A DNA stretch of 64,000 nucleotides from an uncultured Chloroflexia bacterium (GTDB lineage: Bacteria > Chloroflexota > Limnocylindria > QHBO01): NCBI GenBank assembly GCA_963783495.1, contig CAWANT010000006.1, positions 199,799 through 263,798 of the forward strand, in the 5' to 3' direction. Positions 9,741 to 45,719 of the stretch are shown here, piece after piece. Positions within the stretch are counted from its first letter, which is position 1. Every line of letters starts with the position of its first letter. Made by a program: the position numbers and the translations under genes. The notes beneath the pieces are model-generated. The model did not search any database. It saw nothing but the letters and a program-made list of their open reading frames with translations, and had not been told where the DNA came from.

Positions 9741-10258
9741 GTCAGGCGGGGTTGGCGTTGGTCCCGCCCATCGCCGACCCGGATCGCCTGGGCCTCTTCC
9801 TCCGACAGCGTGTGGCTGGAGCTGCCGGACTCCACCGGCTTGGCGAAGAGCCGCGTGTTGGTGCGCCCATGCAGGCTGGAGATCACGACTCCGTCACGCC
9901 GATCGTCGAGCAGCGCCAGCGCAAAGCTCTGGTCGGAGCCGGTGTCCTCGAACGGGTTGAAGCGGACCAGGCCGATGTGCTGGATGCTGGTCTGGGTCCG
10001 ATGCTCCAGCGTCGCCTGCAGTGCATCGATCTCGCCCAGCCGGCTCCGGACCTCTTCGACCCTCGCGACGTGCGTCTGGAGCACCTCGTCCAGGGATCCG
10101 CCGCTGCCATCGCGCACGAGCCGCCGATAGCCATCCACGGCGCGCCCGACGCGGATCGACTGCAGGATCGCCAGCACCAGCAGGACCACGATCGCCACCG
10201 CCATCACGATCAGCACGGCGGCCAGGTTCTCGGTCAGGACGCGGTTGAGCTCGTCCAT
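9665..10258 (-). CDS. DUF4446 family membrane-anchored protein
   Basis: ORF 9665..10297; the internal start MDELNRVLTENLAAVLIVMAVAIVVLLVLAI gives an N-terminal TM. LVRFNPFEDTGSDQSFALALLDDRRDGVVISSLHGR is the recalled DUF4446 signature. The 3' end is uncertain because a 75-nt overlap with the next gene suggests an indel. Confidence 0.6.
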   Translation of the reverse strand: MDELNRVLTENLAAVLIVMAVAIVVLLVLAILQSIRVGRAVDGYRRLVRDGSGGSLDEVLQTHVARVEEVRSRLGEIDALQATLEHRTQTSIQHIGLVRFNPFEDTGSDQSFALALLDDRRDGVVISSLHGRTNTRLFAKPVESGSSSHTLSEEEAQAIRVGDGRDQRQPRLTCPRDLTERMLGRSTPASGGSPNDA

Positions 10259-10422
10259 CGGGTGGGCGCTCCGAGGCTGCGATCGGCCTTCCGGCACCGG
10301 GCGGGCCGAACGGGGCGGGGCCCGGGATGGCTGGTATCATACCGGCCCCGCAGGGCTGAACCCTGCATCGACGCGTGCCCGCGGCGAACACCGCGGCACC
10401 TGAGCATCGATCACGAGGCAGC

Positions 10423-10818
10423 ATGGCTCGAAGAGGCAAGGCAGCGAACCGGAACGCTCGGCGCAGGGCGCAACGCAGCACCGCGCAGCGCCAGCCGACG
10501 ACCGGTCCCGCGGGCGACGCGTCGGCGGTCGAGGCGGACTCGTCCACGACCGCCATGCCGGATGCCTTCGAGATCGCCGATGCCGAAGTGCGGGCCGCCG
10601 CACAGCCGCCGCTGGCCACGACCGCCGGCGCGATGCGCGCCAAGCCACGTCCCGCCGACCCGCGCGTCACGGTTGGCTCGTCGCGGCTGAACGAGCGCGC
10701 TGTGGCCGAGTACCACTACGTCCAGCGCGACCTGCGCAACATCGGCATCCTGGCCGTCATCCTGGCCGCACTGCTGGCCGCCGCCACGGTCCTGGTCAAC
10801 GTCACCGGCCTGATCTGA
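10423..10818 (+). CDS. hypothetical protein, basic N-terminus and C-terminal TM anchor
   Basis: In ORF 10375..10818 the internal start is MARRGKAANRNARRRAQR. The conserved-looking tail is AEYHYVQRDLRNIGILAVILAALLAAATVLV. Confidence 0.5.
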   Translation: MARRGKAANRNARRRAQRSTAQRQPTTGPAGDASAVEADSSTTAMPDAFEIADAEVRAAAQPPLATTAGAMRAKPRPADPRVTVGSSRLNERAVAEYHYVQRDLRNIGILAVILAALLAAATVLVNVTGLI

Positions 10819-10831
10819 GCCGCAGCGGGCA

Positions 10832-10848
10832 AGCGCCGATCGGGCGCT
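10832..10848. terminator. possible bidirectional hairpin between convergent genes
   Basis: AGCGCC-GATCG-GGCGCT forms a 6-bp stem in the 28-nt gap between the convergent stops at 10818 and 10847. There is no U-tract. Confidence 0.25.
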
Positions 10849-11254
10849 AATTCGGCCGCGGCTCCTCCGCGGCAACCTCTTGCGCCGCCATCTCCTTCTC
10901 GAGCCGCTGAGCGTGGCGTTCCTCAACTCGATCGGTGGTCCGGCTGATCGTCTGCCGGGCGACTTCGGAGGCAAAGACCACCAGGACCCCGACTCCGGCG
11001 AGCACGAAGAAGATCGTGAAGATCTTGCCGATCGCCGTTGCCGGCGCGAAGTCCCCGTAGCCCACCGTGGCCAGGGTCGTCACCGAGAAGTAGAGCGCGT
11101 CCAGCGGGTCCCAGCGCTCGATCAGGGTGTAGAAGACCGTCCCGGTCGCCAGGAGGCCGATGAGCACGAGGCCAATCGTCCTCGTCCGCTCCTGGCGGAT
11201 GACGAGCGCGACCGACCCGATGAAGGTCGTCCACAGGAAGGCAATCGCACGCAT
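10847..11254 (-). CDS. two-TM potassium channel (KcsA-like pore only)
   Basis: Internal ATG of ORF 10847..11434 (MRAIAFLWTTF...). Selectivity filter TTLATVGYGDF lies between two hydrophobic helices. The ATG overlaps the reconstructed rarA stop (TGATG). Confidence 0.85.
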   Translation of the reverse strand: MRAIAFLWTTFIGSVALVIRQERTRTIGLVLIGLLATGTVFYTLIERWDPLDALYFSVTTLATVGYGDFAPATAIGKIFTIFFVLAGVGVLVVFASEVARQTISRTTDRVEERHAQRLEKEMAAQEVAAEEPRPN

Positions 11255-12596
11255 CAGCCCTTCCCGTTGCTGCGCCGCTGCCGGCGCAGCCGCTGCAGTC
11301 GCTCGCCGATCTGCGATCTCCAGGCCCTGATCGGATGGCTCGTAGTAGACCTTGCCAGCGAGCTCATCGGGCAGGTACTGCTGGTCGACATCGGCGTCGT
11401 CGTAGTCGTGCGGGATAGAGGTACCCCTTGCCATAGCCGTGCTCGCGTGCCAGTCGGCGGTGGGCCGACGGCCGCAGGTGCAGCGGCACCGGCAGCCGCC
11501 CCTGCTCCTCGACGTCCGCCAGCGCGCTGAAGTAGGCGGCCCCTGCCCGGTTCGACTTCGGCGCCGAGGCGACGTAGGCGGCCGCCTGCGCCAGCGCGTA
11601 CTGCGCCTCCGGCAGTCCGATCATCTCGACCGCCTGCATGGCCGACACCGCGACCTGCAGCGCGCGTGGATCGGCGTTGCCGACGTCCTCGCTGGCCGCG
11701 ATCACGATCCGGCGGGCGATGAAGGTCGGGTCCTCCCCGGCCGCCACCATGCTGGCGCACCAGTACAGCGCGGCATCCGGGTCGTTGCCCCGCATGCTCT
11801 TGATGAAGGCCGAGGCGGCCTCGTAGTGCTGGTCGCCGACCCGGTCGTAGGCCAGCAGCCGCTGCTGGGCAGCCTCCGCCACCGCCTCCGGCCCGATGTC
11901 GACGCCGTCCGGCGCCACCGAGGCCGTCGCCTCCAGGATGTTGAGCGCCTGCCGGGCGTCCCCGCCGGACAGGTCGAGCAGCGAGGCCAGCGCCTCATCC
12001 GTGAGCTGAGACGCGCCGACCCAGGCCGCGCTCCTCGCTCAGCGCCCGTTCGACGATGACTCGCAGCTCGTCCTCGGCCAACGGCTCCAGCCGATAGACC
12101 CGCAGGCGCGACAGGAGCGGCGAGTTCAGCTCGTAGTACGGGATTCTCGGTGGTGGCACCGATCAGGGTGATCGTGCCGTCCTCGACGTGCGGCAGCAGG
12201 GCGTCCTGCTGTGCCTTGTTGAACCGATGCAGCTCGTCGATGAAGGCGACCGTCCGACCACCCTGCTGGCGCAGCGCCTTCGCATCGGCCACCAGCGCGC
12301 GCACGTCGGCGACCCCGCTGGTCACCGCCGACAGCTGCCGCCAGGTGCCCTCCGAGCGCTCCGCCAGCAGCCGCGCCAGCGTGGTCTTGCCGGAGCCCGG
12401 CGGTCCCCACAGCACCATGGACGGCAGGTAGCCGGGCTTCACCACCCGGCTCAGCGCGCCGTCGTCGCCGATCAAGCGCCACCTGGCCCACGAACTCGTC
12501 CAGGCTGCGCGGCCGCATCCGCGCCGCCAGGGGCGCATCGGCCGGCGGCTCGGCGTCGAACAGCGGTGCGGTCAGGTCCGGCGACTTGCGCGGCAT
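11254..12596 (-). CDS. rarA: replication-associated recombination protein A (AAA+; frame-disrupted)
   Basis: Fragments:
- 12126..12596: MRPRSLDEFVGQ
- 11702..12538: MVLWGPPGSGKTTLARLLA, AFIDELHRFNKAQQDALLPHVEDGTITLIGATTENP
- 11364..11918: HYEAASAFIKSMRGNDPDAALYW...ASEDVGNADP
- head of 10847..11434: HDYDDADVDQQYLPDELAGKVYYEP
- tail of 11254..11760: IGERLQRLRRQ. Confidence 0.9.
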
Positions 12597-12619
12597 CGAT
12601 CGGCCTCCATCGGCCGATT

Positions 12620-13795
12620 ATGATGCGGCGCATGGAACAGAACCTGCGCATCCCCGGCCCGACGCCGATCCCCGACGAAGTGCGCCAGGCCCAGGCCGCT
12701 CCGATGATCGATCACCGCGGCACCGAGTTCGCCTCGATGCAGGCGGAGATCACCAACGGGCTCGCGACGCTGATCGGCACGCAGCGGCGACGTGGTCCTG
12801 CTGACTGGCTCCGGCTCCGGCGCAATGGAAGCGGCCGTCGTCAACAGCCTCTCGCCCGGCGACCGGGTGCTGGCCGTCATCATCGGCGGCTTCGGCGATC
12901 GCTTCGCCGACATCGCGGAGGCGTTCGGCGCGCAGGTCGACCGCATGGAGGTCGAGTGGGGCGAGGCTGCCGACCCGGCCACGCTCGCCGCTCGCCTGGC
13001 CGACGCAGTCACCGTACCGCGCCGTGCTGCTGACCCATAACGAGACCTCGACCGGCGTCGCCAACCCACTCCGCGAGCTGGTCGCCGCCGTCCATGCCGC
13101 GCCGGGCGACCCGTTGGTGATCGTCGACGGCATCAGCGGCCTGGGCGCCATGCCGTTCGAGATGGACGCCTGGGGCGTCGACCTGGTGGTCAGCGCCAGC
13201 CAGAAGGCGTGGATGGCCTCGCCCGGCATTGCCATCGCCGCCATCGGCAACGCGCCCGGGCGGCCGAGGCGCTTGGCCAGCATGCCGCGCGTCTACTGGA
13301 GACTTCGCCGAGGCCCGCAAGTGGGCGGAGAAGGGCCAGACGCCCTGGACCCCGGCCGTGGCCGTGCTGTACGGCCTGCGCGTCGGGGTACGGCGGCTGA
13401 TGGAAGAGGGTCGCGAGCGCACCTGGGCCCGCCATGAGGCGATTGCCGCCGGATCGCAGGCCGGCCTGGAGGGCCTGGGGCTGCGGCTCGTCGCGAAGCC
13501 GCAGGATCGGTCCGCCACCGTCACCGCCGCCTGGCTGCCGGACGGCCTGGAGTGGGCTCCGTTCAACCGGGACATGCGCGACCGCGGGCTGGTGGTGGCC
13601 GGCGGCCAGGGCAAGTGGACGGGCAGGATCATGCGCTTCGGGCACATGGGCATGGTCGAGATCGCCGAGATGGTCGACGCGGTGCGGGTCATGGGCGAGA
13701 CCATGGGCGACCACGGCTTCGCCACCGATGTCGCCGCTGCCTGCCAGGGCACCCAGGACGCCTACGAGGCATCGCGCTCCGCCGCCGCACGGTGA
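12620..13795 (+). CDS. class V pyridoxal-phosphate aminotransferase (serine/alanine-glyoxylate type; frame-disrupted)
   Basis: Fragments:
- 12188..13033: MEQNLRIPGPTPIPDEV
- 12792..13040: VLLTGSGSGAMEAAV
- 13024..13437: LLTHNETSTGV, VVSASQKAWMASPG
- 13229..13795: WTPAVAVLYGL...RIMRFGHMG. Confidence 0.8.
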
Positions 13796-13813
13796 CGCCA
13801 CCGCCTGCTGCTG

Positions 13814-14477
13814 GTGCGGCACGGCGTCACGACCTGGAATCGGGAGGGTCGCTTCCAGGGGCACCTCGATCCACCGCTCGACCCGAGCGGGGTCGAGCAG
13901 GCGCGGCTGCTCGGGGCGCGCCTGGCCGCGGACGAGCATGGCCCGCTGCGGATCGTCACCTCGCCGCTGACGCGGGCATCGGCCACCGCGGAGCTGCTCG
14001 CCGAAGCCCTGCGCGGCGTCGGGCGCCAGATAGCTGTCGAGACGCAGGACGGCCTGATGGAGATCGGCCAGGGCGACTGGTCGGGACGGACACACTCCGA
14101 GATCGCGCGCGACGACCCGGAGCGCTACGCCGCCTGGCGCGCCGGCGGCGACCGGGTCACGCCGCCCGGCGGCGAGACACTGGAGGCAGCGACCAGCCGC
14201 ATCGTGGCGGCGCTCGGCGCGCTCACGACAGAGCGGAAGGACAGCCCTCTGCCTGGTATCGCACGGGGGCATCCTGCGATTGGCGGCCGGCCACCTGCTG
14301 GAGCTGCCGCTTCTCGCGGCATGGGCGCTCGACGTGGACAACGCATCGGTCTCACGGCTGTCCCGGCAGGCCATGGACGATCCATGGCGGGTCGAGTCGT
14401 GGAACGACACGGCCCATCTGCTGGGGCAGGTCGGACTGCACGAGGACGAGGCAGAGGGCGCGCCACTGGCGTTGTGA
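13814..14477 (+). CDS. histidine phosphatase (phosphoglycerate-mutase family; one frame break ~14250-14280)
   Basis: ORF 13814..14728 opens (L)LLVRHGVTTWNREGRFQGHLDPPLD with the RHG motif. ORF 14280..14477 supplies the tail AAGHLLELPLLAAWALDVDNASVSRL. GTG start directly follows the aminotransferase stop. Confidence 0.8.
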
Positions 14478-14503
14478 ACGTGCCGAACTCCGCGGCTCGC
14501 GGC

Positions 14504-16823
14504 TCAGTGGCTGGGCAACACTCCGCGAAGTCGCCGGCGCACGGCCAGCCACACCAACGGCCACTGCAGGCGCTTCCAGGCGGCCTCCATGCGCGCGATG
14601 GCGTTTCCGCTGATTCCGTGGCCGGAGTAGCTCTGCCACACCTTGCCATCGGCGATGGTGCGGATCTGCGGCTGCTGCTTGGGAATCTGCTCCTCCAGCC
14701 AGCCGGCGTACTCGTAGATCGTTTCTGACGGCCGCTGTGCCACGCCGGCGCGGTCCGCCGCCATGGCCAGCCTGCGCCACTGCCGGTCGCCGGGTGCCAG
14801 GAAGCGCAACGACCGGCGGGCGCGGCGCCAGCGCCACGCGGCGATGCCCAGCACCAGCACGATCAGACCCGCGATGACCATCAGGTTGCCGCCCAGCGCT
14901 CCGCCGTCCTGCGTGTCCTCGCCGGGCGGGGCGCCGCCGACGATCGGGTTCAGCGACGGCAACGCATTGACGTTGCCATCATCGGTGGGATCGAGCCCGA
15001 CCGGCAGGCTGGGCAGGGGGCCACCGGAGCCCGCAGGCTGCTCTACCCGGCCAGGGACCCGGACGACGGGGCGGATCGACTTGGTCGCCTCGAATACCTG
15101 CCAGCCATAGCCGGGGAAGTACAGCTCGGCCCATGCATGGGCGTTCTTCTGCCTGACCTGCCACACCGGCGAGGGCGCCGCATCCGGCGGAAGGTCAGGC
15201 ACCTGGACGCGCTGGCCGGGCGCATATCCCACCGCCATCCTGGCCGGGATCCCGAGCGTGCGGGCCATGACGACCATGGCGGACGCGTACTGCTCGCAGA
15301 ATCCCACCTGGCCGTTGGTCGGATCGAAGAGGAAGTAGTCGACCAGGTCCTGCCCAGGATCGTCCGGGAGGCCTGCGGTCGTGCTGTAGGCGAACGCTTC
15401 GTTGCCCTGGAGATATCGCGCCAGGGCCTCGGCCTGATCGAACGGGGTGGAGGCCTCGGCGGCCATCGGCGATCTCGTCTGCCAGCTGCCGCGTCCGCTC
15501 CGTCACGCCATCGGTGCCGAGATAGAACCGCGCGACTTCCGCCGGGTAGCTCGTGCCCGCGGCCTGCAGCTGGGCCTTGGTTGCCTTGCTGATGGCCACC
15601 GTCATCGCGTAGCCGGTACCGGCGTCGACAGGCCCCGTCGCCTTCAACGCACCGAGGAACGGCTGGTCACCGGTCTCGACCACCAGGACCGGCGCGAACG
15701 TCTTGATCGGGTAGCCGGCCGAGTACAGGTAGCGCGAGGTTGGGCTCTGGATCTGGACCTCGATGGTCTCGTTCTCGAACGCCTCGCCCACGGTCGGCAC
15801 CTCGGGGCTGTCTGCGCCGAAGGTTGGCTGCTCTCTCTCCACCTGCCGCTCGCGGCCGGGCGTCTGAGTCCAGCCGTGCCCGTCGTAGTTGTCATAGGTC
15901 ACGGCGCGCAGGTACAGGCCCTGTGTCGCCGCGACCGTCAGCATCGGCTTGTCGCTGCTGGACCATTCGCCGGCGATCCGGAAGCTGGGACCGAAATTCG
16001 TGCCGTGGAATCGCGACTCGGAGTTGCTCAGCCCACCGAAGACGGTGTCCAGGTTGTCGCGGACGCCGCCCCAGACCGTGTCCAGGTTGTTCCACACGGC
16101 GGTCAGCGGCGCGGCCACCGCCACCGTGGTGAGGACGGAGGCCATCACCAGGCTGCCGGCTATGAACACCAGGCCGCTCCGCATGATGGCGGCCGGCACC
16201 TCGCTGTTCTCGTTGACGCGGCGCCGCTGCCAGCCCTCCTCGCGGCCGATGAGGGCCGCGCGCAGCCACAGCAGCAGCGCGGCGAGCATGAACAGGACGA
16301 GGTAGGGAAGGAGATCGGTCAGGGTCGCCGAAATGTTCGCGATGACCAGCGCACCGACCAGCAGGATGGCGTCCAGCACCCGATGGTGCCGGTACAGCGT
16401 GTAGGCGGCGATGAAGGCCGTCACCCACATCAGCACGCCGAGCCCGACGGCGTAGGGGGTGAGCTGCGGCGCGTAGCCGCGGTCGGCCAGGATGCGCACC
16501 CAGTTCACCGCGTCGTCCCGCAGAGTCAGGAACCGGGCGTCCTGCGACAGCACCGGGAAGTACTCGCCGCCGACGGTCCACAGCACGATGCCGGCCCCGA
16601 CCACCGCACTGATCGGCAGCGTCAGGGTCACGCTCAGCGGGGTGAGCGCCAGGAAGGCTCCCAGCAGGAGCGCGAAGAATGCGATCGGCACCAGGAACTC
16701 GGTCTGCTCGAGCCACTCGGCGCGCTGCACGCTCCAGCACAGGCTGAGCAGCATGACCATCAGCAGGGCGGCCGACAGCCAGCCCTCCCGCGGCTGCAGG
16801 TAGCGCCGCAGTCCCTCAGGCAC
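14504..16823 (-). CDS. transglutaminase-domain membrane protein (TgpA-like; one frame break ~15450)
   Basis: ORF 15195..16904 gives the multi-TM N-terminal half. ORF 14504..15466 gives the core GFCEQYASAMVVMARTLGIPARMAVGY...NAHAWAELYFPGYGWQVFEAT and a C-terminal TM. The GTG at 16823 overlaps the DUF58 stop. Confidence 0.85.
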
Positions 16824-18082
16824 GGAGCTCCTCCCGGGACAACACGGCGGGTCGCGAGGCCCGGCGGCCGGTGGCGCCACCCAGCACCTCGGGGATGTCG
16901 TCACCCGAGCGCAGCAGGTAGTAGGTGATGTCGTACTCGGCCAGCGCGTGGCGAACGGCCGACAGCTCCGGCGATGCCTCGTCGCTGCGTCCCACGTAGC
17001 TGTCGCGATCGAGCAGCACCACCACCGCGCCCACTCCGCGGCGCCGCAGCGAGGCCAGCGCGCGGACCCACTCGCGGTCGGTGGAGCCGGTCACGATGCA
17101 GAGCGTCATGCCGCGCCGCAGCTGCGGGAGCGAGGCCACCAGGACTTCAGCCAGCGGGCGAGAGCCGTCGGCCTGCACGTTGGCCAGCAGGTGCAGGATC
17201 TTCTGCTCCACGCGCGTGCCGCGGTCCGGTGTCAGGACGTGCTGCCGTCGCGACGACACCGTCATCCCCACCGCCCGGTTCTCACCCAGCGTCTGCACCG
17301 CGATCGACGCGGCGGCGCTGACGCCGGCCTCCACCGAGGCGGACTCCCCCACCCCGGCATGCGCGGAGCGCTCGAGATCGAGCAGCAGCAGCAGGTCGGC
17401 GGTCTGCTCCAGGTCGAACTCCTTCACGTGCAGCTCGGAGTGCCGCACGCTGGAGAGCCAGTGGATGCGGTTGATGGCGTCGCCATGGACGTAGGGCCGG
17501 ATGCTGCTGACCAGCGGGCTGGCCGCCTCGAAGCGCCGACGCGATGGCGCGGTGCCGTCAACCGGCGACGGCGGCAGGCGCCAGTGCGGCAGCTCATGGA
17601 CCTTCGGGAAAACGACCACCCAGGTCGGCTGGCCAACCACCATCTCGCTGGCGAACAGGCCGAATGGGTCTCCGGTTCGTACCCGCAGGGCGCCGAGCCG
17701 GTACGAGCCACGGCGCAGCAGCGTGACCTTGGCCAGCCACTGCCGGTTGCCGCGAGCGGCGACCCCGATCACCCGGCCCGGCAGCGGCGCCGGAAGGGTC
17801 GAGTCGTTCCACAGCTCCACCCATGGCTTGCCCCAGCCGGTCTCGTTGTCGACGCGGTAGACCGCCTGCAGCACCTCGCCCACCTGGGCGCGCGGGTTCA
17901 GGACGTGGTAGCCGGCCCGCAGCCCCTGCAGGCCGCGCCGCGCGTACAGCCACGAGGCCAAGCAGCAGTCCGCCCAACAGGTACACCAGGAAGAAGAGGA
18001 CGGGGATGCCCGTGCTGAAGGCAGCCACCACCAGCACGGTGCCAAGGAAGACGAAGCGGAGCTGTTTGGCCAGGCTGCCCAT
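16816..18082 (-). CDS. DUF58 domain protein (MoxR partner; one frame break ~17945)
   Basis: N-terminal TM segment comes from ORF 17594..18082 (MGSLAKQLRFVFLGTVLVVAAF...). The body comes from ORF 16816..18045 with RPYVHGDAINRIHWLSS. Confidence 0.85.
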
Positions 18083-18119
18083 TGCGCGGACCTCTATGGA
18101 CCTCTGTTCCGAAAGCGCG

Positions 18120-19086
18120 CTAGACGGGACCCGCCGTGGCGCTGGTTGCCTCGCCGATCGGCACCTGGGCCAGGATCTCGCGCACGATCGAATCGGGATC
18201 GATCTCTCGCAGCGATGCCTGGCTCTTGATGATCAGCCGATGGGCGAGGACGGCGACGGCCAGCTGCTTCACGTCGTCGGGGATGACGTAGTCGCGGCCC
18301 TCGAGCGCGGCCAGCGCCTGGCTCGAGCGATAGAGGTTCAAGCGAGCCTCGCGGCGAGGCGCCCAGGTAGACGTCCGGATGCTCGCGCGTGGCGGTGACC
18401 AGCCGGACGATGTACTCGGCCACGGTCTGGTCGACGTAGATCTCCTTGATCCCCGACTGCATCTGGCGCAGCTCCTCCAGGTCCAGGGTCTGGCGCAGGT
18501 CGTCGATCGGGTGCAGGCGCTTCTGCTCGTCCAGGATGACGATCTCCTCCATCGCCTTGGGATAGCCCAGGCGAAGGCGGAGCATGAACCGATCGAGCTG
18601 CGCCTCGGGCAGGGCGAAGGTCCCCTCGTACTCGATCGGGTTCTGGGTGGCGATCACCAGGAACGGCGACGGCATCGGGTAGGTGGTGCCGTCGATGGTG
18701 GCCTGCCGCTCCTCCATGCACTCCAGCAGCGCGGACTGGGTCTTGGGGGTGGCCCGGTTGATCTCATCGGCCAGCACCACCTGCGCCATGATCGGCCCCG
18801 GCCGGAACTCGAACTCCTGGGTCTTCTGGTTGAAGATGGACAGGCCGGTCACGTCGGACGGCAGCAGGTCCGGGGTGAACTGGATGCGGCGGAACGAGCA
18901 GCCGATGGACTTGGACAGCGCCTTGGCCAGCATCGTCTTGCCGACGCCGGGCACGTCCTCGATCAGGATGTGGCCTTCGCAGAGGAGGGCGACGAGGGCC
19001 ATCCGGACCTCGACGTGCTTGCCGACGATGACGCGCTCGACGTTGGCGACGACGCGCTCTGCCGGCTCCTGGACGTTCTTCACCAT
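18120..19086 (-). CDS. moxR: MoxR-family AAA+ ATPase (one frame break ~18345)
   Basis: ORF 18094..19158 from the internal MVKNVQEP carries [18 protein letters not shown] and [23 protein letters not shown]. The tail comes from ORF 18120..18341 ([19 protein letters not shown]). Confidence 0.9.
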
Positions 19087-40654: not shown

Positions 40655-40684
40655 TTGACCCTGCCCGGGCGCTTCCGGCATCAT
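40655..40684 (+). promoter_or_regulatory. possible sigma70-type promoter in front of the truncated tRNA-Lys copy
   Basis: TTGACC (40655-40660), an 18-nt spacer, then CATCAT (40679-40684). The tRNA-like 5' end follows 7 nt later at 40692. Confidence 0.3.
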
Positions 40685-40691
40685 TTCCCGC

Positions 40692-40728
40692 GGGCGGCTA
40701 GCTCAACGGCAGAGCAAGTGACTCTTAA
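40692..40728 (+). repeat. exact copy of the 5' 37 nt of tRNA-Lys (att-like direct repeat / pseudo-tRNA)
   Basis: GGGCGGCTAGCTCAACGGCAGAGCAAGTGACTCTTAA is identical to 45516-45552. Identity ends in the anticodon loop. Downstream only weakly resembles a T-arm (GATCGAACCGCTG vs GTTCGAATCCCTG). Confidence 0.9.
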
Positions 40729-40814
40729 GCATCCCCGATCGAACCGCTGTGGTCGCTGAGCGTGGCGACTGGAGCGAAAGCCGTCTCAGTTATAGGCTCG
40801 ATTCGTGATCCGCC

Positions 40815-41761
40815 TTGGGTGAGACAGGACTCCACGTCGTCGCCGGAATCGGCGCGGTCGGCCGTGCCGTCGTCGGTGAGCTCGTAGCGCGAGGACTTAC
40901 TGCGCGAGCCGTCGCGCGCCATCAGGCGTCCGCCTTGCCCGCCGAGGTCGAGCTGGTCGAGGCTGACCTGGCGGACCCGTCATCTGCCGCGCTGCCCTTG
41001 CCGGCGCGACCGTCGTCTACCACGCCGCATCTGCGCCGTACGATCGCTGGCCAGCCCTCCTGCCGGCGCTCATGACGGGCATCCTCGATGGCGCTGCCGC
41101 GACCGGTGCCCGAGTCGTCTACGCCGACAACCTCTACGCCTACGGCCCGGTCGCCGGACGACTGACCGAAGACCTTCCGTATCGGGCGACGGGACCAAAC
41201 GGCCGCGTCCGGGCAGCCCTTGCCGACGAGCTGATGGCGGCGCACGCGGCCGGCCGCGTCCGGGCGACGATCGGTCGGGCGTCGGACTACTACGGTCCGT
41301 GGGGCCGCCAGTCGACCGCAGGCGACCGCCTCTTCCTGCCAGCCCTCGCCGGGAAGCCGGCGCAGGTCCTCGGCGATCCGGACCAGCCCCACACGTTCAC
41401 GTACCTCGCTGACTTCGCTCGGGCGCTGGTGACCCTTGGCACGGACGAACGCGCGCTCGGCGAGGTGTGGCACGTGCCGAGCGCGGAGACAGTAACGACC
41501 CGGGAGTTCGTGAGCCTGGTCTACGAGGTGGCTGGTCATCCGGCGCAACTACGCGTGCTGCCCTCGGTGCTCCTGGCCGGCCTCGCGCTCGTCAGCCCGA
41601 TGCTCCGTGCGGTCCGCGAGCAGCAGTACCAGCGGGTCGCGCCGTGGGTCGTCGACCACGCCAAGTTCGAGAGCGCGTTCGGGACAACCGTGACGCCCCA
41701 CCGCGAGGCGATCCGCACGACGCTCGACTGGTTCGCCAGCAGCGCCGGGTCATCCTCCTAA
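40815..41761 (+). CDS. NAD(P)-dependent epimerase/dehydratase-type SDR oxidoreductase (one frame break ~40985)
   Basis: ORF 40815..41075 (HVVAGIGAVGRAVVGELVARG, Rossmann fold) joins ORF 41072..41761 (VVYADNLYAYGP...GRASDYYGP...TFTYLADFARALV). Confidence 0.75.
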
Positions 41762-41820
41762 GGCCGGCGACGCCAGCCGCTCGTCGTCCTCGCGGATATG
41801 GTCACGCTGCCACGGAGCGG
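41762..41820 (+). repeat. island repeat R1
   Basis: GGCCGGCGACGCCAGCCGCTCGTCGTCCTCGCGGATATGGTCACGCTGCCACGGAGCGG. It starts 1 nt after the TAA stop of the SDR gene. Confidence 0.85.
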
Positions 41821-41905
41821 CAGCCGAGGTCACCGGCGACGCCAGGGCTTGCTGGCCGTCTATCCGCGCTGCGGTATCGCCGTGGCCGTAGGCAGCTCTC
41901 TGGCC

Positions 41906-42387
41906 TCAGAGACTGACCCTGATCTTGGTCTCGCAATCATCGTATACGATGTCGTTGGGACCGTAATAGGTGACGTCGGCACCATCGCCGCACATAACAA
42001 AGTCGACGTCGCCATCGCCGCCAGATAGATCGTGTCGTCACCGGGGCCGCCGTTGTTTCCGTCACGCCCATCACCCGGCCGGAGAATGTCATTCCCGCGA
42101 CCGCCGATGAGACTATCTTCGCCGGCGTTGCCGTAGAGCGTGTCATGGCCGACGAATCCCCGAACGCGGTCGTTTCCCGGGCCTCCGTACAGAGTGTCGG
42201 CCCCACCGAAGCCTTCGACGATGTCTCGCCCGCCGAGGCCGCGGATGATGTCACGCTGTCCCGTTCCATACAGCGAATCTCCGGAATCAGTTCCGATGAT
42301 CACGGCTGCCGCGACAGGCCCGGTAGCGACTAACACCAGGCAGGCGCCAAGGCTCACGGAGTACAGAAGTCGCCGCAGTAGGTTCAC
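41906..42387 (-). CDS. secreted calcium-binding (RTX/hemolysin-type) repeat protein (one frame break ~42022)
   Basis: ORF 41860..42387 has a signal-like N-terminus (MNLLRRLLYSVSLGACLVLVATGPVAAA) followed by GxGxD-type nonapeptides (LYGTGQRDIIRGLGGRDIVEGFGGADTLYGGPGNDRV...). After the break my reading gives GGDGDVDFVMCGDGADVTYYGPNDIVYDDCETKIRVSL*. Confidence 0.7.
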
Positions 42388-42462
42388 GGGTGTACCTCAG
42401 ATTGTTTCGAGGGATCGAGTATCAACTGAGTCCCCTGCGGAAGGACTGCGGCGCGCGTGACG

Positions 42463-42507
42463 GGCCGGCGACGCCAGCCGCTCACCATCCTGGGGTGGCT
42501 CCTCAGG
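42463..42507 (+). repeat. island repeat R2
   Basis: GGCCGGCGACGCCAGCCGCTCACCATCCTGGGGTGGCTCCTCAGG. Confidence 0.85.
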
Positions 42508-42547
42508 TCCTGTTCCCGATGACTGCTCGCCGTGCTAGCGTCCGGCG

Positions 42548-42824
42548 ATGCCATTGCTGCCCCGCGATCGGTGGTCGGCCGCTAGGGCCATCTGGTTGAG
42601 CGCGGGTGTCCTCGCCGTCGCCCTGGCCGTCGGGCTCCTGTTCTTCCGGCCGAACCTGACCCGCTTCAGCCAGTGCGATGGCTATCTCCCGGGGTGGATG
42701 CTCGGCAGCAGGACTACCAGGGTGGAGGGTGCGCGGAGGCGCTGCCGTCGGACGAGGCCGCCGCTGACGCCGACTGGACGCTGTATTGCCTCGGGTATTG
42801 CACCGGACCGTTCTACCAACCGTA
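42548..42824 (+). CDS. small membrane-anchored Cys-containing protein (one frame break ~42690)
   Basis: ORF 42548..42910 opens MPLLPRDRWSAARAIWLSAGVLAVALAVGLLFF...FSQCDGYLPG. After a shift my reading gives VDARQQDYQGGGCAEALPSDEAAADADWTLYCLGYCTGPFYQP*, stopping at 42822-42824. Confidence 0.45.
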
Positions 42825-42850
42825 GAAGGCAGGGCGCCGAGTTAGGGCGG

Positions 42851-42900
42851 GGCCGGCGACGCCAGCCGCTCACCATCCACGGATGGCCACGGCACGGAGC
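42851..42900 (+). repeat. island repeat R3
   Basis: GGCCGGCGACGCCAGCCGCTCACCATCCACGGATGGCCACGGCACGGAGC. Confidence 0.85.
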
Positions 42901-42914
42901 CTCAGACTAGCGGT

Positions 42915-43253
42915 ATGCAGATCGGCGATTGGCGGGGCACGACGCGCAAGCTATGGCGCCTGTTCCTGCGCGAGCTGCCGATCATGCTGGGAATATGGCT
43001 CGTGGTAGGTATCGGCCTAGCCGTTTATGGCTATCTCCAGGGCGAGTCGATTGGCGATGCGCTGCGCACGGCCCTCGTGTTCCTACCGCTGGCGGTCCCA
43101 CTGTCCCCGGTCCTCTGGCTACACCATGAACACCAAGCGCGGCGACCGAGCGCCCTGCCGGCGATCGGGCTGGGCTGCCTTTGGGCCCTCGTGACCCTGC
43201 CCCTGGCCGTCGCGACAGCTGTAGGCATCGCCAACCTGCTGGGCGTCGAGTGA
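42915..43253 (+). CDS. hypothetical multi-TM membrane protein
   Basis: Intact 112-aa ORF with three hydrophobic spans (IMLGIWLVVGIGLAVYGYL; ALVFLPLAVPLSPVLWL; LGCLWALVTLPLAVATAVGIANLL). Confidence 0.55.
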   Translation: MQIGDWRGTTRKLWRLFLRELPIMLGIWLVVGIGLAVYGYLQGESIGDALRTALVFLPLAVPLSPVLWLHHEHQARRPSALPAIGLGCLWALVTLPLAVATAVGIANLLGVE

Positions 43254-43276
43254 ATCGCCGATTACGTGGGGGCCGG

Positions 43277-43337
43277 GGCCGGCGACGCCAGCCGCTCGCC
43301 GTCTTGGCGGCATGGTCACGCTGCCACGGAGCGCCGG
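43277..43337 (+). repeat. island repeat R4
   Basis: GGCCGGCGACGCCAGCCGCTCGCCGTCTTGGCGGCATGGTCACGCTGCCACGGAGCGCCGG. The outer GGCCGGCG / CGCCGG ends are inverted. Confidence 0.85.
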
Positions 43338-43411
43338 GCCTGGTCGATGCTGGTGGCCGCTTACTGGCGGCATTCCGCCAAGCTGTAGCCTGTTCGTGTT
43401 TCGTCTATTGG

Positions 43412-43937
43412 CTACGGCGTGACCACGCAATCGCTCGGCGGCGTCACCGGCGTCGAGAGCGGGCCGGTGGCCGAAAGGCCGTAGAAAGTCGCCACCAGCA
43501 CGGTCGGCACCGTCCCGGGATTAAAGGCAGTGTGGACGTGGCCGTGGCCGGGGTCGAAAAAGGCCTCGTTGGTGCCGTAGTGACGCTCGACGCAGTCCAT
43601 GGCAGCTCACGGACGCCGCGGCCCGCCGCTGGCCACGTTTACCACCACCGAGCTCTCTGTGCGAGTGCCAAGGGAACATAGCACCCGGGTGGACGGTGAA
43701 CATCACGACCTGGGTGAAGGACGGGTCCTCGAAGTTGATTACGTTGGTGGCGTGGCCGTCCAGCTTGTGCTTGAACTTCAGATCGACGTTGTTGGTGAAT
43801 GCAGCGCGCCCGGTGAGGGGCTGGACCTCGATTGGAAGCTGGGCCAACGTAGGCATCACCGCCACAGCCGCAATGAGGCCCACGGCGACAAGTACTGCGA
43901 ATCCTAGGGATAGTGATTCGACGGTGCATGGGTTCAC
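43412..43937 (-). CDS. exported cupin-domain protein (frame-disrupted)
   Basis: ORF 43521..43937 has a signal/TM (LSLGFAVLVAVGLIAAVAVMPTLA) followed by VMFTVHPGAMFPWHSH. ORF 43412..43600 supplies FFDPGHGHVHTAFNPGTVPTVLVATF. Confidence 0.6.
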
Positions 43938-44111
43938 CTCGGCTACCAGGCGGGCCAGTTTGCCAAGTGGCTCAGCGCAGTCAGGGCAGCACGGCGGCCA
44001 AGGATGAGGGACTGCGCGTCATTGCCTCCCGTTCACAGCAGCGTAGTGCCGGCGTAGCTGGTTGGACATGACGAATGATTCTTCGCGGTGCGCGGAGGCA
44101 ACATACGACGC

Positions 44112-44153
44112 GAGCCGCCATCCTGGGATGGTCACGCTTCCACGGAGCGCCGG
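44112..44153 (+). repeat. island repeat R5 (5'-degenerate)
   Basis: GAGCCGCCATCCTGGGATGGTCACGCTTCCACGGAGCGCCGG. Confidence 0.75.
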
Positions 44154-44179
44154 TCCGACGCCATTCTCAACCTGTCGAC

Positions 44180-44308
44180 TTACTGCTCGCTTATCGGTTC
44201 GAATTCGTACCCCTGCGCCTCCAGGTTGAGTTCGACACCATCGGCCCACGCGCGCGGCGCCCCGCACCGCGGGCAGCGCAGCTCCGCCAGCTGCGCGCCG
44301 GGCGACAT
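44180..44308 (-). CDS. possible 42-aa ORF downstream of the recombinase
   Basis: My reverse reading gives MSPGAQLAELRCPRCGAPRAWADGVELNLEAQGYEFEPISEQ*. Third-codon G/C is high. I recognise no homologue. Confidence 0.3.
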   Translation of the reverse strand: MSPGAQLAELRCPRCGAPRAWADGVELNLEAQGYEFEPISEQ

Positions 44309-44457
44309 TGTGCCCGGTCAGATCCGCCTCGGGCCGCGGTCCAGGGCACCCGGGCTGGTGCGGCTACGTCGGTGCCCTCGGGCGGCTTGAGACTGGAAGC
44401 CGATGAGCCCGCGTGGGGTATACCACTCCCAGCCCGACGGCAGCTCGCGCGCGGTTG

Positions 44458-45385
44458 TCACAGCCGGTCCCGCGGGCTGTGGCGCTCGAAGGCGGCCCGC
44501 GCCCGCTCGTCGGCCGGCGCTGGCGCCGTAGCGGCCGACCATCTGGCGGCTCTTCCAGCCGGCCAGGCGCATCAGGTCGCCTTCCTGCATGCCATCGGCG
44601 AGCAGCGCGTGCGCGAAGCCGTGGCGGAAGGTGTGCGGGTGGGCCGTGACGCCGGCCTCGCGCGGCGCGGCGCTTCACCACCTGGGCGATGCCGGAGGCG
44701 GTGAGCCGGCCCTGCTTGCCGATCCACAGCACTCGGCGCCGGCGTCCGTGGCGCGCGCGGATGCGCAGGTAGCGGTCGAGCACCTGCGCGGTCTTGCGGC
44801 CGAACGGCGTGGCCCGCGGGCGCCGGCCCTTGCCCAGCACCACCACCATCTTGTGGTCGAAGTCGACGTCGGCTGACGCGCAGGCCGGCGATCTCGGCGC
44901 GGCGGATGCCGCGAGTCGACGAGCAGCGACAGGATGGCGGCGTCGCGCCGGGACTCGAAGTCGGTGCCGTCGACCGTGGCCAGCAGCGCCTTCAGCTGCT
45001 CGTCGCGCAGCATCTCGGGCGGCTCCTCGGGGATGGCCGGCGGCTTCATGTTCCGCATCGGCGACTCGCGGATCTCGCCCTCGGCGAGCAGCCATTGAAG
45101 AACTGCTGCAGCGAGCGGAAGCGGTTGGCCCGGCTCGACGGCTTCCAGCCGTTGGCTCCAGGTCGAGCAGGAAGGATTCGACGTGCTCGCGGTCATAGCG
45201 TCGACCGCGGTCGGCATGCCGGAGCGCGGCAGGAAGGCGTCGAGCTGCTCGACGGCCTTGCCATAGGTGAGCACGGTGATGGCGGCTCTTGTTCTCGGCG
45301 GCCAGGTGCCGCAGGAACGAGGCGCGCAATGGACCGAGCGCGGAGAGGGCGGTAGAATCGGCACCTGGGGAAGGGTCTTGGCCAT
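44458..45385 (-). CDS. tyrosine-type site-specific recombinase/integrase (XerC/D-like; frame-disrupted)
   Basis: Fragments:
- 44675..45400: MAKTLPQV..., LTYGKAVEQLDAFL, LRDEQLKALLATVDGTDFESRRDAAILSLLVDS
- 44364..45329: DVDFDHKMVVVLGKGRRPRATPFGRKTAQVLDRYL
- 44318..44590: MQEGDLMRLAGWKSRQMVGRYGAS, containing the catalytic Tyr
My reading ends ...ADERARAAFERHSPRDRL* at 44458. Confidence 0.8.
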
Positions 45386-45515
45386 CGTGCTGAGCCTCAA
45401 ACTGAAGGATTTCCTACCCGACAGTTATAGACTCGACAAGCGCTGTGGTCAACCTCTCTCCCCGGCGATTCACAGTCACAGACTCGATCTGAGCGTGAAT
45501 CGGCCGAAATCGAGT

Positions 45516-45590
45516 GGGCGGCTAGCTCAACGGCAGAGCAAGTGACTCTTAATCACTAGGTTCAGGGTTCGAATCCCTGGCCGCTCACCA
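45516..45590 (+). tRNA. tRNA-Lys (anticodon CUU)
   Basis: GGGCGGC-TA-GCTC-AACGGCA-GAGC-A-AGTGA-CTCTTAA-TCACT-AGGTT-CAGGG-TTCGAAT-CCCTG-GCCGCTC-A-CCA. It is 75 nt and forms a full cloverleaf by hand. Confidence 0.92.
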
Positions 45591-45719
45591 CGACACCAAT
45601 CCACGCCTGGCCAGCCCTGGCCGACCTCGACGGCGGTGCGCGCGAACATGAGCACTGCGGGCCATCCGCGTGTTGACGTGGACGCCTTCATCCGGCTGGT
45701 TGCCACCTGAGCTCTCGGC

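Follow-up and report, generated by a model that had tools for sequence, protein, structure and literature searches.

Reversed polarity of a putative 4.82-kb integrative element at the single tRNA-Lys(CTT) gene of an uncultured Chloroflexota bacterium

The DNA analysed here (the window) is a stretch of 64,000 nucleotides (nt) of contig CAWANT010000006.1 (assembly GCA_963783495.1, positions 199,799 to 263,798 of the forward strand) from an uncultured soil/freshwater Chloroflexota bacterium. Our subject is a 4.82-kb element (window positions 40729-45515 plus one copy of a 37-nt core) which lies directly upstream of the tRNA-Lys(CTT) gene, between a DUF3105 gene on the left and a glucosidase gene on the right. 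The element consists of an attachment-site arm (P' arm), a cargo region, a broken gene for a tyrosine integrase (int) and a second arm (P arm) which adjoins the tRNA gene (Table 1). The tRNA gene's 5' half is present at both ends, once displaced at the left attachment site (attL) and once as part of the intact gene at the right one (attR).

Table 1 The element, its target gene and the sequence features discussed in the text (window positions)
Feature	Position	Strand	Basis and remarks
Predicted native tRNA-Lys promoter, TTGACC-18-CATCAT	40655-40684	+	Consensus scan; now ahead of the truncated copy
attL core, displaced 5' half of tRNA-Lys(CTT), nt 1-37	40692-40728	+	Exact 37-nt repeat of 45516-45552
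P' arm	40729-40805	+	Blocks CGCTGTGGTC (40745), CTGAGCGTG (40756), GAGCGAAA (40772), CAGTTATAGGCTCGA (40787)
Cargo, NAD-dependent epimerase/SDR-like gene	40815-41761	+	Split near 41072 into two frames; the two pieces of the open reading frame (ORF) match Pfam NAD_binding_10 and Epimerase
Cargo, five co-oriented copies of a 40-65-nt intergenic repeat	41761-44156	+	Starts 41761, 42462, 42850, 43276, 44109; between cargo ORFs
Cargo, small secreted protein with RTX calcium-binding repeats	41860-42387	-	Pfam HemolysinCabind, E 3e-23
Cargo, two small ORFs (a doubtful one of 120 aa and a membrane-like one of 112 aa)	42548-43253	+	No family match
Cargo, cupin-like ORF, two frames	43412-43937	-	ORF pieces 43521-43937 and 43412-43600; no Pfam hit, named from the motif GAMFPWHSH only
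c-di-GMP-II-GAG riboswitch-like element	43943-44038	-	Rfam RF03169, matched over its full length at 38.3 bits (E 5.7e-5; gathering threshold 40, thus below it); immediately precedes the frameshifted cupin-like ORF
int, Xer-like tyrosine integrase gene, full length, broken	44458-45385	-	tblastn to the intact 321-aa homologue of G020, residues 7-321, alternating frames
Candidate tRNA promoter, TGGACC-17-TAGAAT, then CGG	45330-45358	+	Consensus scan; inside int codons about 10-19, antisense to int
P arm	45386-45515	+	Alignment of nine elements
Predicted int promoter, TTGACC, 17 nt, TATAAC	45452-45447, 45429-45424	-	Read from the P-arm sequence; not among the scan hits
Intact tRNA-Lys(CTT), attR	45516-45590	+	ARAGORN; Rfam tRNA 67.7 bits

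The first 37 nt of the intact tRNA gene (45516-45552) recur exactly, on the same strand, 4.8 kb upstream of it. This had been reported in an earlier note made from the sequence alone and was confirmed by a repeat search and by ARAGORN; when the comparison is extended to 40731, 39 of 40 positions are identical. The anticodon starts at nt 33 of the gene and the 7-nt loop CTCTTAA corresponds to nt 31-37. The note had the identity stop inside the anticodon loop, which was nearly right, since it ends with the last base of the loop. ARAGORN recognized one tRNA-Lys(ctt), the gene at 45516-45590, whereas the left copy was not called as a tRNA by ARAGORN and had no Rfam match at E<=1. In the intact gene, nt 1-37 represent the attR core, while the 3' half and the downstream flank are native, the flank matching that of relatives. 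The loose likeness to a T-arm and acceptor that the note had seen beyond the left copy is unsupported: this stretch is a non-tRNA arm conserved in related elements. An attP site carrying a degenerate 3' part of the tRNA was also considered and rejected, as neither Rfam nor ARAGORN gave a signal and the stretch differs among relatives. Nor is the left copy a degenerate paralogue present in all relatives, whose sites show none.

The genome has 48 tRNA genes, of which this is the only one for tRNA-Lys(CTT). Of the lysine codons counted in 349 long ORFs, 96% are AAG, so that expression of the gene is required. The genome (2.47 Mb in 7 contigs) shows a marker completeness of 58%, yet its 48 tRNA genes cover all 20 amino acids. 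The glucosidase gene beside the tRNA is split into three frames, and its orthologue in a genome of another genus (G020) is a single ORF of 739 codons. The full tRNA set and these frameshifts indicate that the assembly is nearly complete but rich in small indel errors. In the following, genomes of relatives are designated by G numbers (G000 being the window's own genome) and their loci or contigs by L numbers; all related loci come from metagenome-assembled genomes.

For relatives without the insert, the order DUF3105 gene, promoter, intact tRNA-Lys gene and glucosidase gene had been predicted. Precisely this order, with TTGACC-N18-CATCAT as the promoter and with exact junctions, was found in at least eight relatives, seven of them from the same genus. 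The same-genus empty sites are those of L007, L009, L010, L012, L013 and L033, together with L005/L006, which could be followed only as far as the tRNA gene; L014, from another genus, is an empty site too. The insert is thus not universal at this site in the relatives and its distribution is patchy.

A consensus scan of 5.4 kb gave only two promoter hits, the one ahead of the left copy (40655-40684) and the one within int (45330-45358). The first, TTGACC-N18-CATCAT, stands 7 nt upstream of the intact tRNA-Lys gene in 14 relatives, and the box is also present ahead of the attL copies of G020, G041 and G369 and of those on four metagenome contigs. The earlier observation that a σ70-like promoter precedes the truncated left copy was confirmed both by the scan and by the conservation in these 14 relatives, and on these grounds we assign the box as the native tRNA-Lys promoter. 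It was left with the truncated copy, and the tRNA would therefore have to be transcribed from element DNA. The statement that the tRNA-Lys(CUU) gene has been cut from its native promoter, with element DNA upstream of it, consequently holds, and it concerns the only copy in the genome.

On the other side of the tRNA gene, about 1.7 kb of extra DNA was seen between the tRNA flank and the glucosidase gene in two close relatives (L025 2817-4556 of G004 and L026 807-2543 of G011). The flanks of this DNA overlap by 11 bp, which correspond to window positions 45641-45651, and in G004 it contains a GH3-type glycosidase gene. Relative to G004 and G011, the window may carry a deletion at 45641-45651.

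Both arms of the element are conserved in its relatives. In G020, G369, G171 and metagenome contigs, the arm behind the 5' half is 79-86% identical to the P' arm of the window. In the P arm, the conserved blocks are CAGTTATAGACTCGA (45422), GCGCTGTGGTCAA (45440-45452), CAGTCACAGACTCGA (45473) and the invariant CTGAGCGTGAATCGG (45489-45503). The conserved blocks of the two arms comprise CAGTTATAG(A/G)CTCGA, CGCTGTGGTC and CTGAGCGTG / GAGCGAAA. RNAalifold found no compensatory pair in a transcript of the 5' half and P' arm, and a conserved RNA structure was set aside for now for want of covariation. For the same reason we take the blocks to be probable protein-binding sites. Motifs A and C of the arms, which might have marked sites for integrase-less islands, do not occur elsewhere in the genome.

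One motif of the P arm, CTGAGC[AG][CT]G[AC]A (window 45489-45499), has 18 copies in the genome. Four of these, the copy in the window and those at G000 C6:182576, C2:2239 and C7:221818, are no more than 30 nt away from a tRNA end, and each is on the same strand as its tRNA. The motif is located upstream of the tRNA 5' end in islands of reversed polarity, and 3-5 nt past the 3' end of tRNA-Thr and tRNA-Cys in this genome and of tRNA-Lys in relatives with classical islands (L005, L031). Judging by this placement, it is a predicted junction signal common to both island types.

The int gene lies 130 nt from the intact tRNA gene, in agreement with the distance previously noted for a tyrosine recombinase, and one of its pieces is matched by the Pfam model Phage_integrase. 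The encoded protein combines a SAM-like core-binding domain with a catalytic one, and Pfam revealed no arm-binding domain. It is similar to the dimer resolvases XerC and XerD in this two-domain architecture and in its nearest solved structures (XerA and XerD), but it reaches only about half of the XerC/XerD equivalog cut-offs (173 and 158 bits against 335 and 330), is patchily distributed and always lies beside a tRNA gene. It does not score as an integron integrase either (58 and 35 bits, cut-offs 265 and 435). Public annotation names the family XerC/XerD; to our knowledge, this large family has not been characterised. The genome holds three tyrosine recombinase genes, the broken int of the element and two other Xer-type genes.

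The layout seen in the window was found throughout the relatives of this integrase. We compared 16 loci whose integrases share 38-100% identity with the reference; 13 of them were evaluable (L044 and L048 end at contig ends). At 12 of the 13, a complete tRNA gene is found 110-190 nt upstream of int and in divergent orientation; it is tRNA-Lys(CTT) in seven cases and tRNA-His(GTG), tRNA-Arg(TCT), tRNA-Arg(CCG), tRNA-Arg(TCG) and tRNA-Met(CAT) in one case each. Four further contigs retrieved through the protein database have the same layout, including one with tRNA-Lys(TTT) (L126) and one with tRNA-Met. Overall, a tRNA gene or its 3' part was found divergently upstream of int in all 16 relatives with enough upstream sequence. 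The opposite layout was observed at L047, where a tRNA-Gln gene is in the classical position relative to a 44%-identical integrase; no repeat was found there. L041, a 2.3-kb element, and L049, one of 6.5 kb, have displaced fragments of nt 1-38/39 downstream of int, and displaced 5' halves are present wherever the contigs are long enough. In every case, their identity to the tRNA extends to the last loop base of the anticodon arm and no further, and the breakpoint is at the same tRNA position for six tRNA species. The 5' half of tRNA-Met in G171 is joined to a P' arm 86% identical to that of the window, so close relatives have switched from one tRNA to another. Judging from these arrangements, reversed polarity is the rule for the whole Xer-like integrase family in this lineage.

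A different arrangement was noticed at the thirteenth evaluable locus, L043 (about 1500-1800), where the integrase gene and P arm abut only the anticodon stem-loop and 3' half of tRNA-Gly(CCC). As no 5' half is present, the tRNA was apparently not restored by integration at this locus.

When the window's genome was scanned in the manner of Islander, only 5' fragments were obtained, all upstream of their tRNA genes and co-oriented with them: four of tRNA-Gly(TCC), one of tRNA-Met and one of tRNA-Lys. The tRNA-Gly(TCC) fragments lie 14-29 kb upstream (G000 C4:323350-352391) and the tRNA-Met(CAT) fragment 6.5 kb upstream (G000 C6:182495-189061), and these islands have no integrase gene of their own. 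Classical 3'-fragment islands at the same tRNA-Lys(CTT) gene were found in G004 and G017, with fragments which start at tRNA nt 29. Taken with the 5' islands, they show that the anticodon loop of tRNA-Lys is used in both polarities. The classical scar of G004 (L025 877-2817) contains a TadG-like gene and no integrase gene, and that of G017 (L031 47-4838) contains a truncated integrase gene of another type and a GGDEF/HD-GYP gene.

DNA of the P arm was detected in 13 of 153 sampled genomes of the family (from 8 genera including the window's), in none of 247 genomes from the other families of the class, and within the genus only in G000 and G008. In G020, one contig reads DUF3105 gene, promoter, 5' half and a P' arm 80% identical to that of the window, and a second one carries an intact gene for a 321-aa integrase, the P arm, tRNA-Lys and the glucosidase gene. 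The same P' arm follows 5' halves in G041, G044 and G369, and attL junctions of the host type were also found in G041, G369 and four metagenome contigs. A complete 8.56-kb element with a 37-nt 5' fragment is present between tRNA-Lys and the DUF3105 gene on the 439-kb contig L122; its integrase gene (with a product 75% identical to that of G020) is followed by genes for an AAA_25 ATPase and an HK97-type capsid protein. We conclude from these gene contents that the element family includes members with real mobile-element gene sets. In the L122 element (9796-18430 of JGI contig Ga0376076_0000016) and in L123, no virion genes were seen besides the capsid gene, and the 8.56-kb element looks like a satellite because the capsid gene stands without other virion genes. 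The 8.6-kb Logan contig L123 starts and ends within the core because the core is a repeat.

These comparisons bear on the possibility that no site-specific integration has taken place and that a local duplication, homologous recombination or misassembly around the tRNA gene produced the 37-nt repeat. The low consensus quality of the assembly would be in its favour; the same junctions, arms and integrase, however, occur in independent assemblies of several genera and in ten metagenome contigs, the empty sites are precise and the breakpoint is identical in six tRNA species. We therefore consider this explanation highly improbable.

We propose instead, with a probability of roughly 0.85, that the element was put into the anticodon loop of tRNA-Lys(CUU) by the two-domain Xer-like integrase with 5' polarity, and that the tRNA is now transcribed from the element. 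The attP site would have had the order P arm, tRNA nt 1-37, P' arm, and strand exchange would have occurred in or beside the 7-nt anticodon loop. The identity block extends here from nt 1 to the end of the loop and in the classical islands from nt 29 to the 3' end, so that the two types of block overlap in the loop and two stem bases. Because of this overlap, the exchange is placed at the loop, the region which is described in a passage of PMC8371274 as the usual overlap region of anticodon-type integrases. On the left side, the product would be the native promoter, the native 5' half and the P' arm, that is, a dead stump; on the right side, the P arm, the element-borne 5' half and the native 3' half would form an intact tRNA gene. 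Transcription of this gene would start from TGGACC-17-TAGAAT and converge with that of int.

Several observations point to TGGACC-17-TAGAAT as the promoter of the restored gene. The -10 boxes of host tRNA genes are of the types TAGAATCGG, TATACTCG and TAGACTC, and that of the candidate matches the TAGAATCGG type. The candidate sequence is conserved in all Lys elements, and a -10-like hexamer at -180 to -125 from the tRNA was found at 16 of 17 (mutually related) family loci, with 0.036 expected per locus. It persists even though the integrase residues encoded there differ (DST, DDS, QSI, ILT). Although the int gene of G008 is truncated, this genome keeps 227 nt upstream of the tRNA at 79-84% identity with the candidate promoter intact. 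TGGACC-17-TAGAAT is thus the most likely candidate for the promoter of the tRNA, and the predicted promoter of int would face it at a distance of about 50 nt.

Such an arrangement allows a more far-reaching proposal, namely that the reversed polarity in Limnocylindria is by design rather than an oddity. The host-type promoter in the first int codons would be a strong one and fire head-on against the int promoter; in the integrated state, transcription of an essential tRNA could thereby silence int and so stabilise the island, the captured native promoter at attL would read into the cargo, and the loss of attL, as in G008, would fix the dependence. We regard this as rather unlikely, though compatible with the placement of the promoters.

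Several points weigh against the proposed integration and promoter use. The candidate tRNA promoter is a consensus match overlapping a coding sequence, -10-like boxes nearer the tRNA (TAGACT at 45428 and GTGAAT at 45499) are also possible, and the count of 16 of 17 overstates independence because the family loci are related. The ORF list and Pfam revealed no recognisable excisionase, replication or transfer gene in the window's copy. A pattern specific for attP (P arm, core, P' arm) had no match in metagenome contigs, and a looser pattern retrieved 10 such contigs, all with the core and P' arm. In G044 and in three or four metagenome contigs, a 5' half does stand between a P arm and a P' arm, but these junctions are accompanied by a second, diverged or truncated int gene and are for this reason best read as tandem arrays, not as circles. 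Finally, int shows 11 indels in this assembly, the neighbouring genes showing about 0.5-1 frameshift per kb, so the copy may be immobile.

This last point leads to the idea of a fossil island, integrated as proposed and since then fixed, with a dead integrase and a host dependent on the element-derived upstream region. The indels of int, defined against five intact homologues, are six deletions and five insertions of 1-2 bases, compared with 2 frameshifts in the 2.2-kb glucosidase gene and 1 in each of two cargo genes. The ratio of differences at first and second to those at third codon positions is also somewhat raised, at 0.50-0.80 for the window's int and 0.38-0.40 for that of G020 with the same partners, and G008, with int truncated and both attL and the native promoter lost, could represent the end state. 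On the other hand, insertions and deletions are about equally frequent, larger deletions are absent and all segments align, which looks like consensus error in an assembly that is clearly error-prone, as judged from its completeness of 58% despite 7 contigs and a full set of 48 tRNA genes. Besides, the intact integrase gene of L036 has codon-position ratios similar to those of the window's broken one. The indel map and the ratios fit decay as well as local consensus error. We give the fossil island a little less than an even chance.

In G008 (L029 and L030, on contigs C206 and C169), the DUF3105 gene is followed directly by genes for a histidine kinase, a response regulator and a multicopper oxidase. 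The int gene is cut to about 33 codons upstream of tRNA-Lys, attL and the native promoter are gone, and the island appears fixed.

The cargo of the window's copy consists of accessory genes only. The earlier description of the cargo as less GC-rich than the flanks applies to 41800-42400 and 43400-44200, where the GC content is 0.63-0.64, but not to the SDR gene (0.70-0.73) or int (0.75). It is possible that this copy is decaying and immobile and that its fuller relatives are members such as the 8.6-kb element, which occupies the same site and has replication and capsid genes.

The repeats of the cargo (GGCGACGCCAGCCGCTC ... GGTCACGCTGCCACGGAGCG) belong to a dispersed family with clusters at about ten loci of the genome, among them G000 C2:6135-8667, C3:11997-12499, C5:279578-280349, C7:215338-216424 and C4:336149. 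One copy is also present in the element of G008, beside the int remnant. No significant fold and no similarity to the att arms were found for the repeats, which ruled them out as attC-like hairpins or copies of the arms.

It could be supposed that the element is a platform for small gene cassettes, split by the dispersed 40-65-nt repeat and swapped among tRNA-linked islands by its own or some other recombinase, somewhat in the manner of an integron. Five co-oriented repeats between single ORFs, the clusters of the same repeat elsewhere, the different cargo next to the repeat copy in G008 and the fact that tRNA-Gly and tRNA-Met of this genome have islands with displaced 5' halves but no integrase would agree with it. 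The repeats, however, gave fold z-scores of -0.1 to +0.6 and have no attC-like features or similarity to the att arms, the integrase reaches 58 bits of the 265 required for an integron integrase, the cargo ORFs are on both strands, and the repeat occurs also far from any tRNA. A cassette platform is accordingly quite unlikely, and the element differs from integrons both in the missing IntI-type score and in repeats without a significant fold.

According to the textbook rule, tRNA islands replace the 3' end of the gene, which therefore keeps its promoter. Bacterial integrative elements with reversed target-gene orientation were reportedly described by Zhao and Williams in 2002, in J Bacteriol 184:859. 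Like the element described here, these have a tyrosine integrase, displace a 5' fragment upstream and restore the gene with their own 5' part; as far as they are portrayed in citing papers, the difference is that reversed polarity is here the rule of an Xer-like clade and the sole polarity detectable in the genome. The earlier statement that elements in tRNA genes generally duplicate the 3' portion was right, and 5' polarity is nevertheless documented in the literature (PMC6563490, PMC8371274, PMC4383910). Recombination with the 5'-distal part of a tRNA gene is called 'considerably less frequent' than that with the 3' part in a passage which names Zhao & Williams 2002 for bacteria and the pTN3 type for archaea as examples (PMC6563490), and the configuration filter of Islander is stated, in the relevant passage, to retain 5' fragments situated upstream (PMC4383910).

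A comparable system is pTN3 of Thermococcales (Cossu et al. 2017). According to the passages concerned, this element has 41 bp in common with the 5' half of tRNA-Leu and restores the full tRNA away from its original promoter, its integrase is of the SSV-type ('suicidal'), with attP inside the gene, which is split on integration, and expression of the restored tRNA is attributed to the integrase promoter (PMC5495485, PMC8371274). The two systems thus have in common that attB is the 5' half of a tRNA gene and that the rebuilt tRNA is parted from its native promoter. In contrast to the archaeal element, the integrase is here bacterial and Xer-like and its gene lies whole beside attP, divergent from the tRNA. 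A whole int ORF beside attP was found in G020, L041, L049 and L122, so the split-gene feature of the SSV-type is absent. As int and the tRNA diverge, the tRNA would, unlike that of pTN3, need a promoter of its own on the opposite strand.

With classical anticodon-loop tRNA islands in the sublocation scheme of Williams 2002, as depicted in parts of PMC8371274, the element shares the crossover in the anticodon stem-loop, the direct repeat, the int gene beside the intact tRNA and tandem accretion. It differs from them in the identity block, which runs here from nt 1 to the loop and there from the loop to the 3' end, and in the loss of the native promoter to the stump. A further parallel is the tRNA-dependent lysogeny of actinobacteriophages (Guerrero-Bustamante & Hatfull 2024), in which, by the account given in a portion of PMC10865867, the common sequence is no longer than about 10 bp and integration destroys the host tRNA, whose function is supplied by a separate, complete tRNA gene of the phage. 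In both cases the host relies on element-borne sequence for tRNA function, but here the gene itself is rebuilt at attR.

The element of the window is a further case of a documented minority class of tRNA islands and is in this respect confirmatory rather than surprising. Its significance lies in the systematic inversion of the 3'-replacement rule in one bacterial lineage by a large integrase family mislabelled XerC/XerD, which has a bearing on island-finding software and annotation. It also provides a natural test case for the expression of an essential tRNA after its promoter has been swapped for element DNA. If the convergent-promoter proposal were true, a host that lost attL in the way of G008 could never again do without element DNA for its main lysine tRNA.

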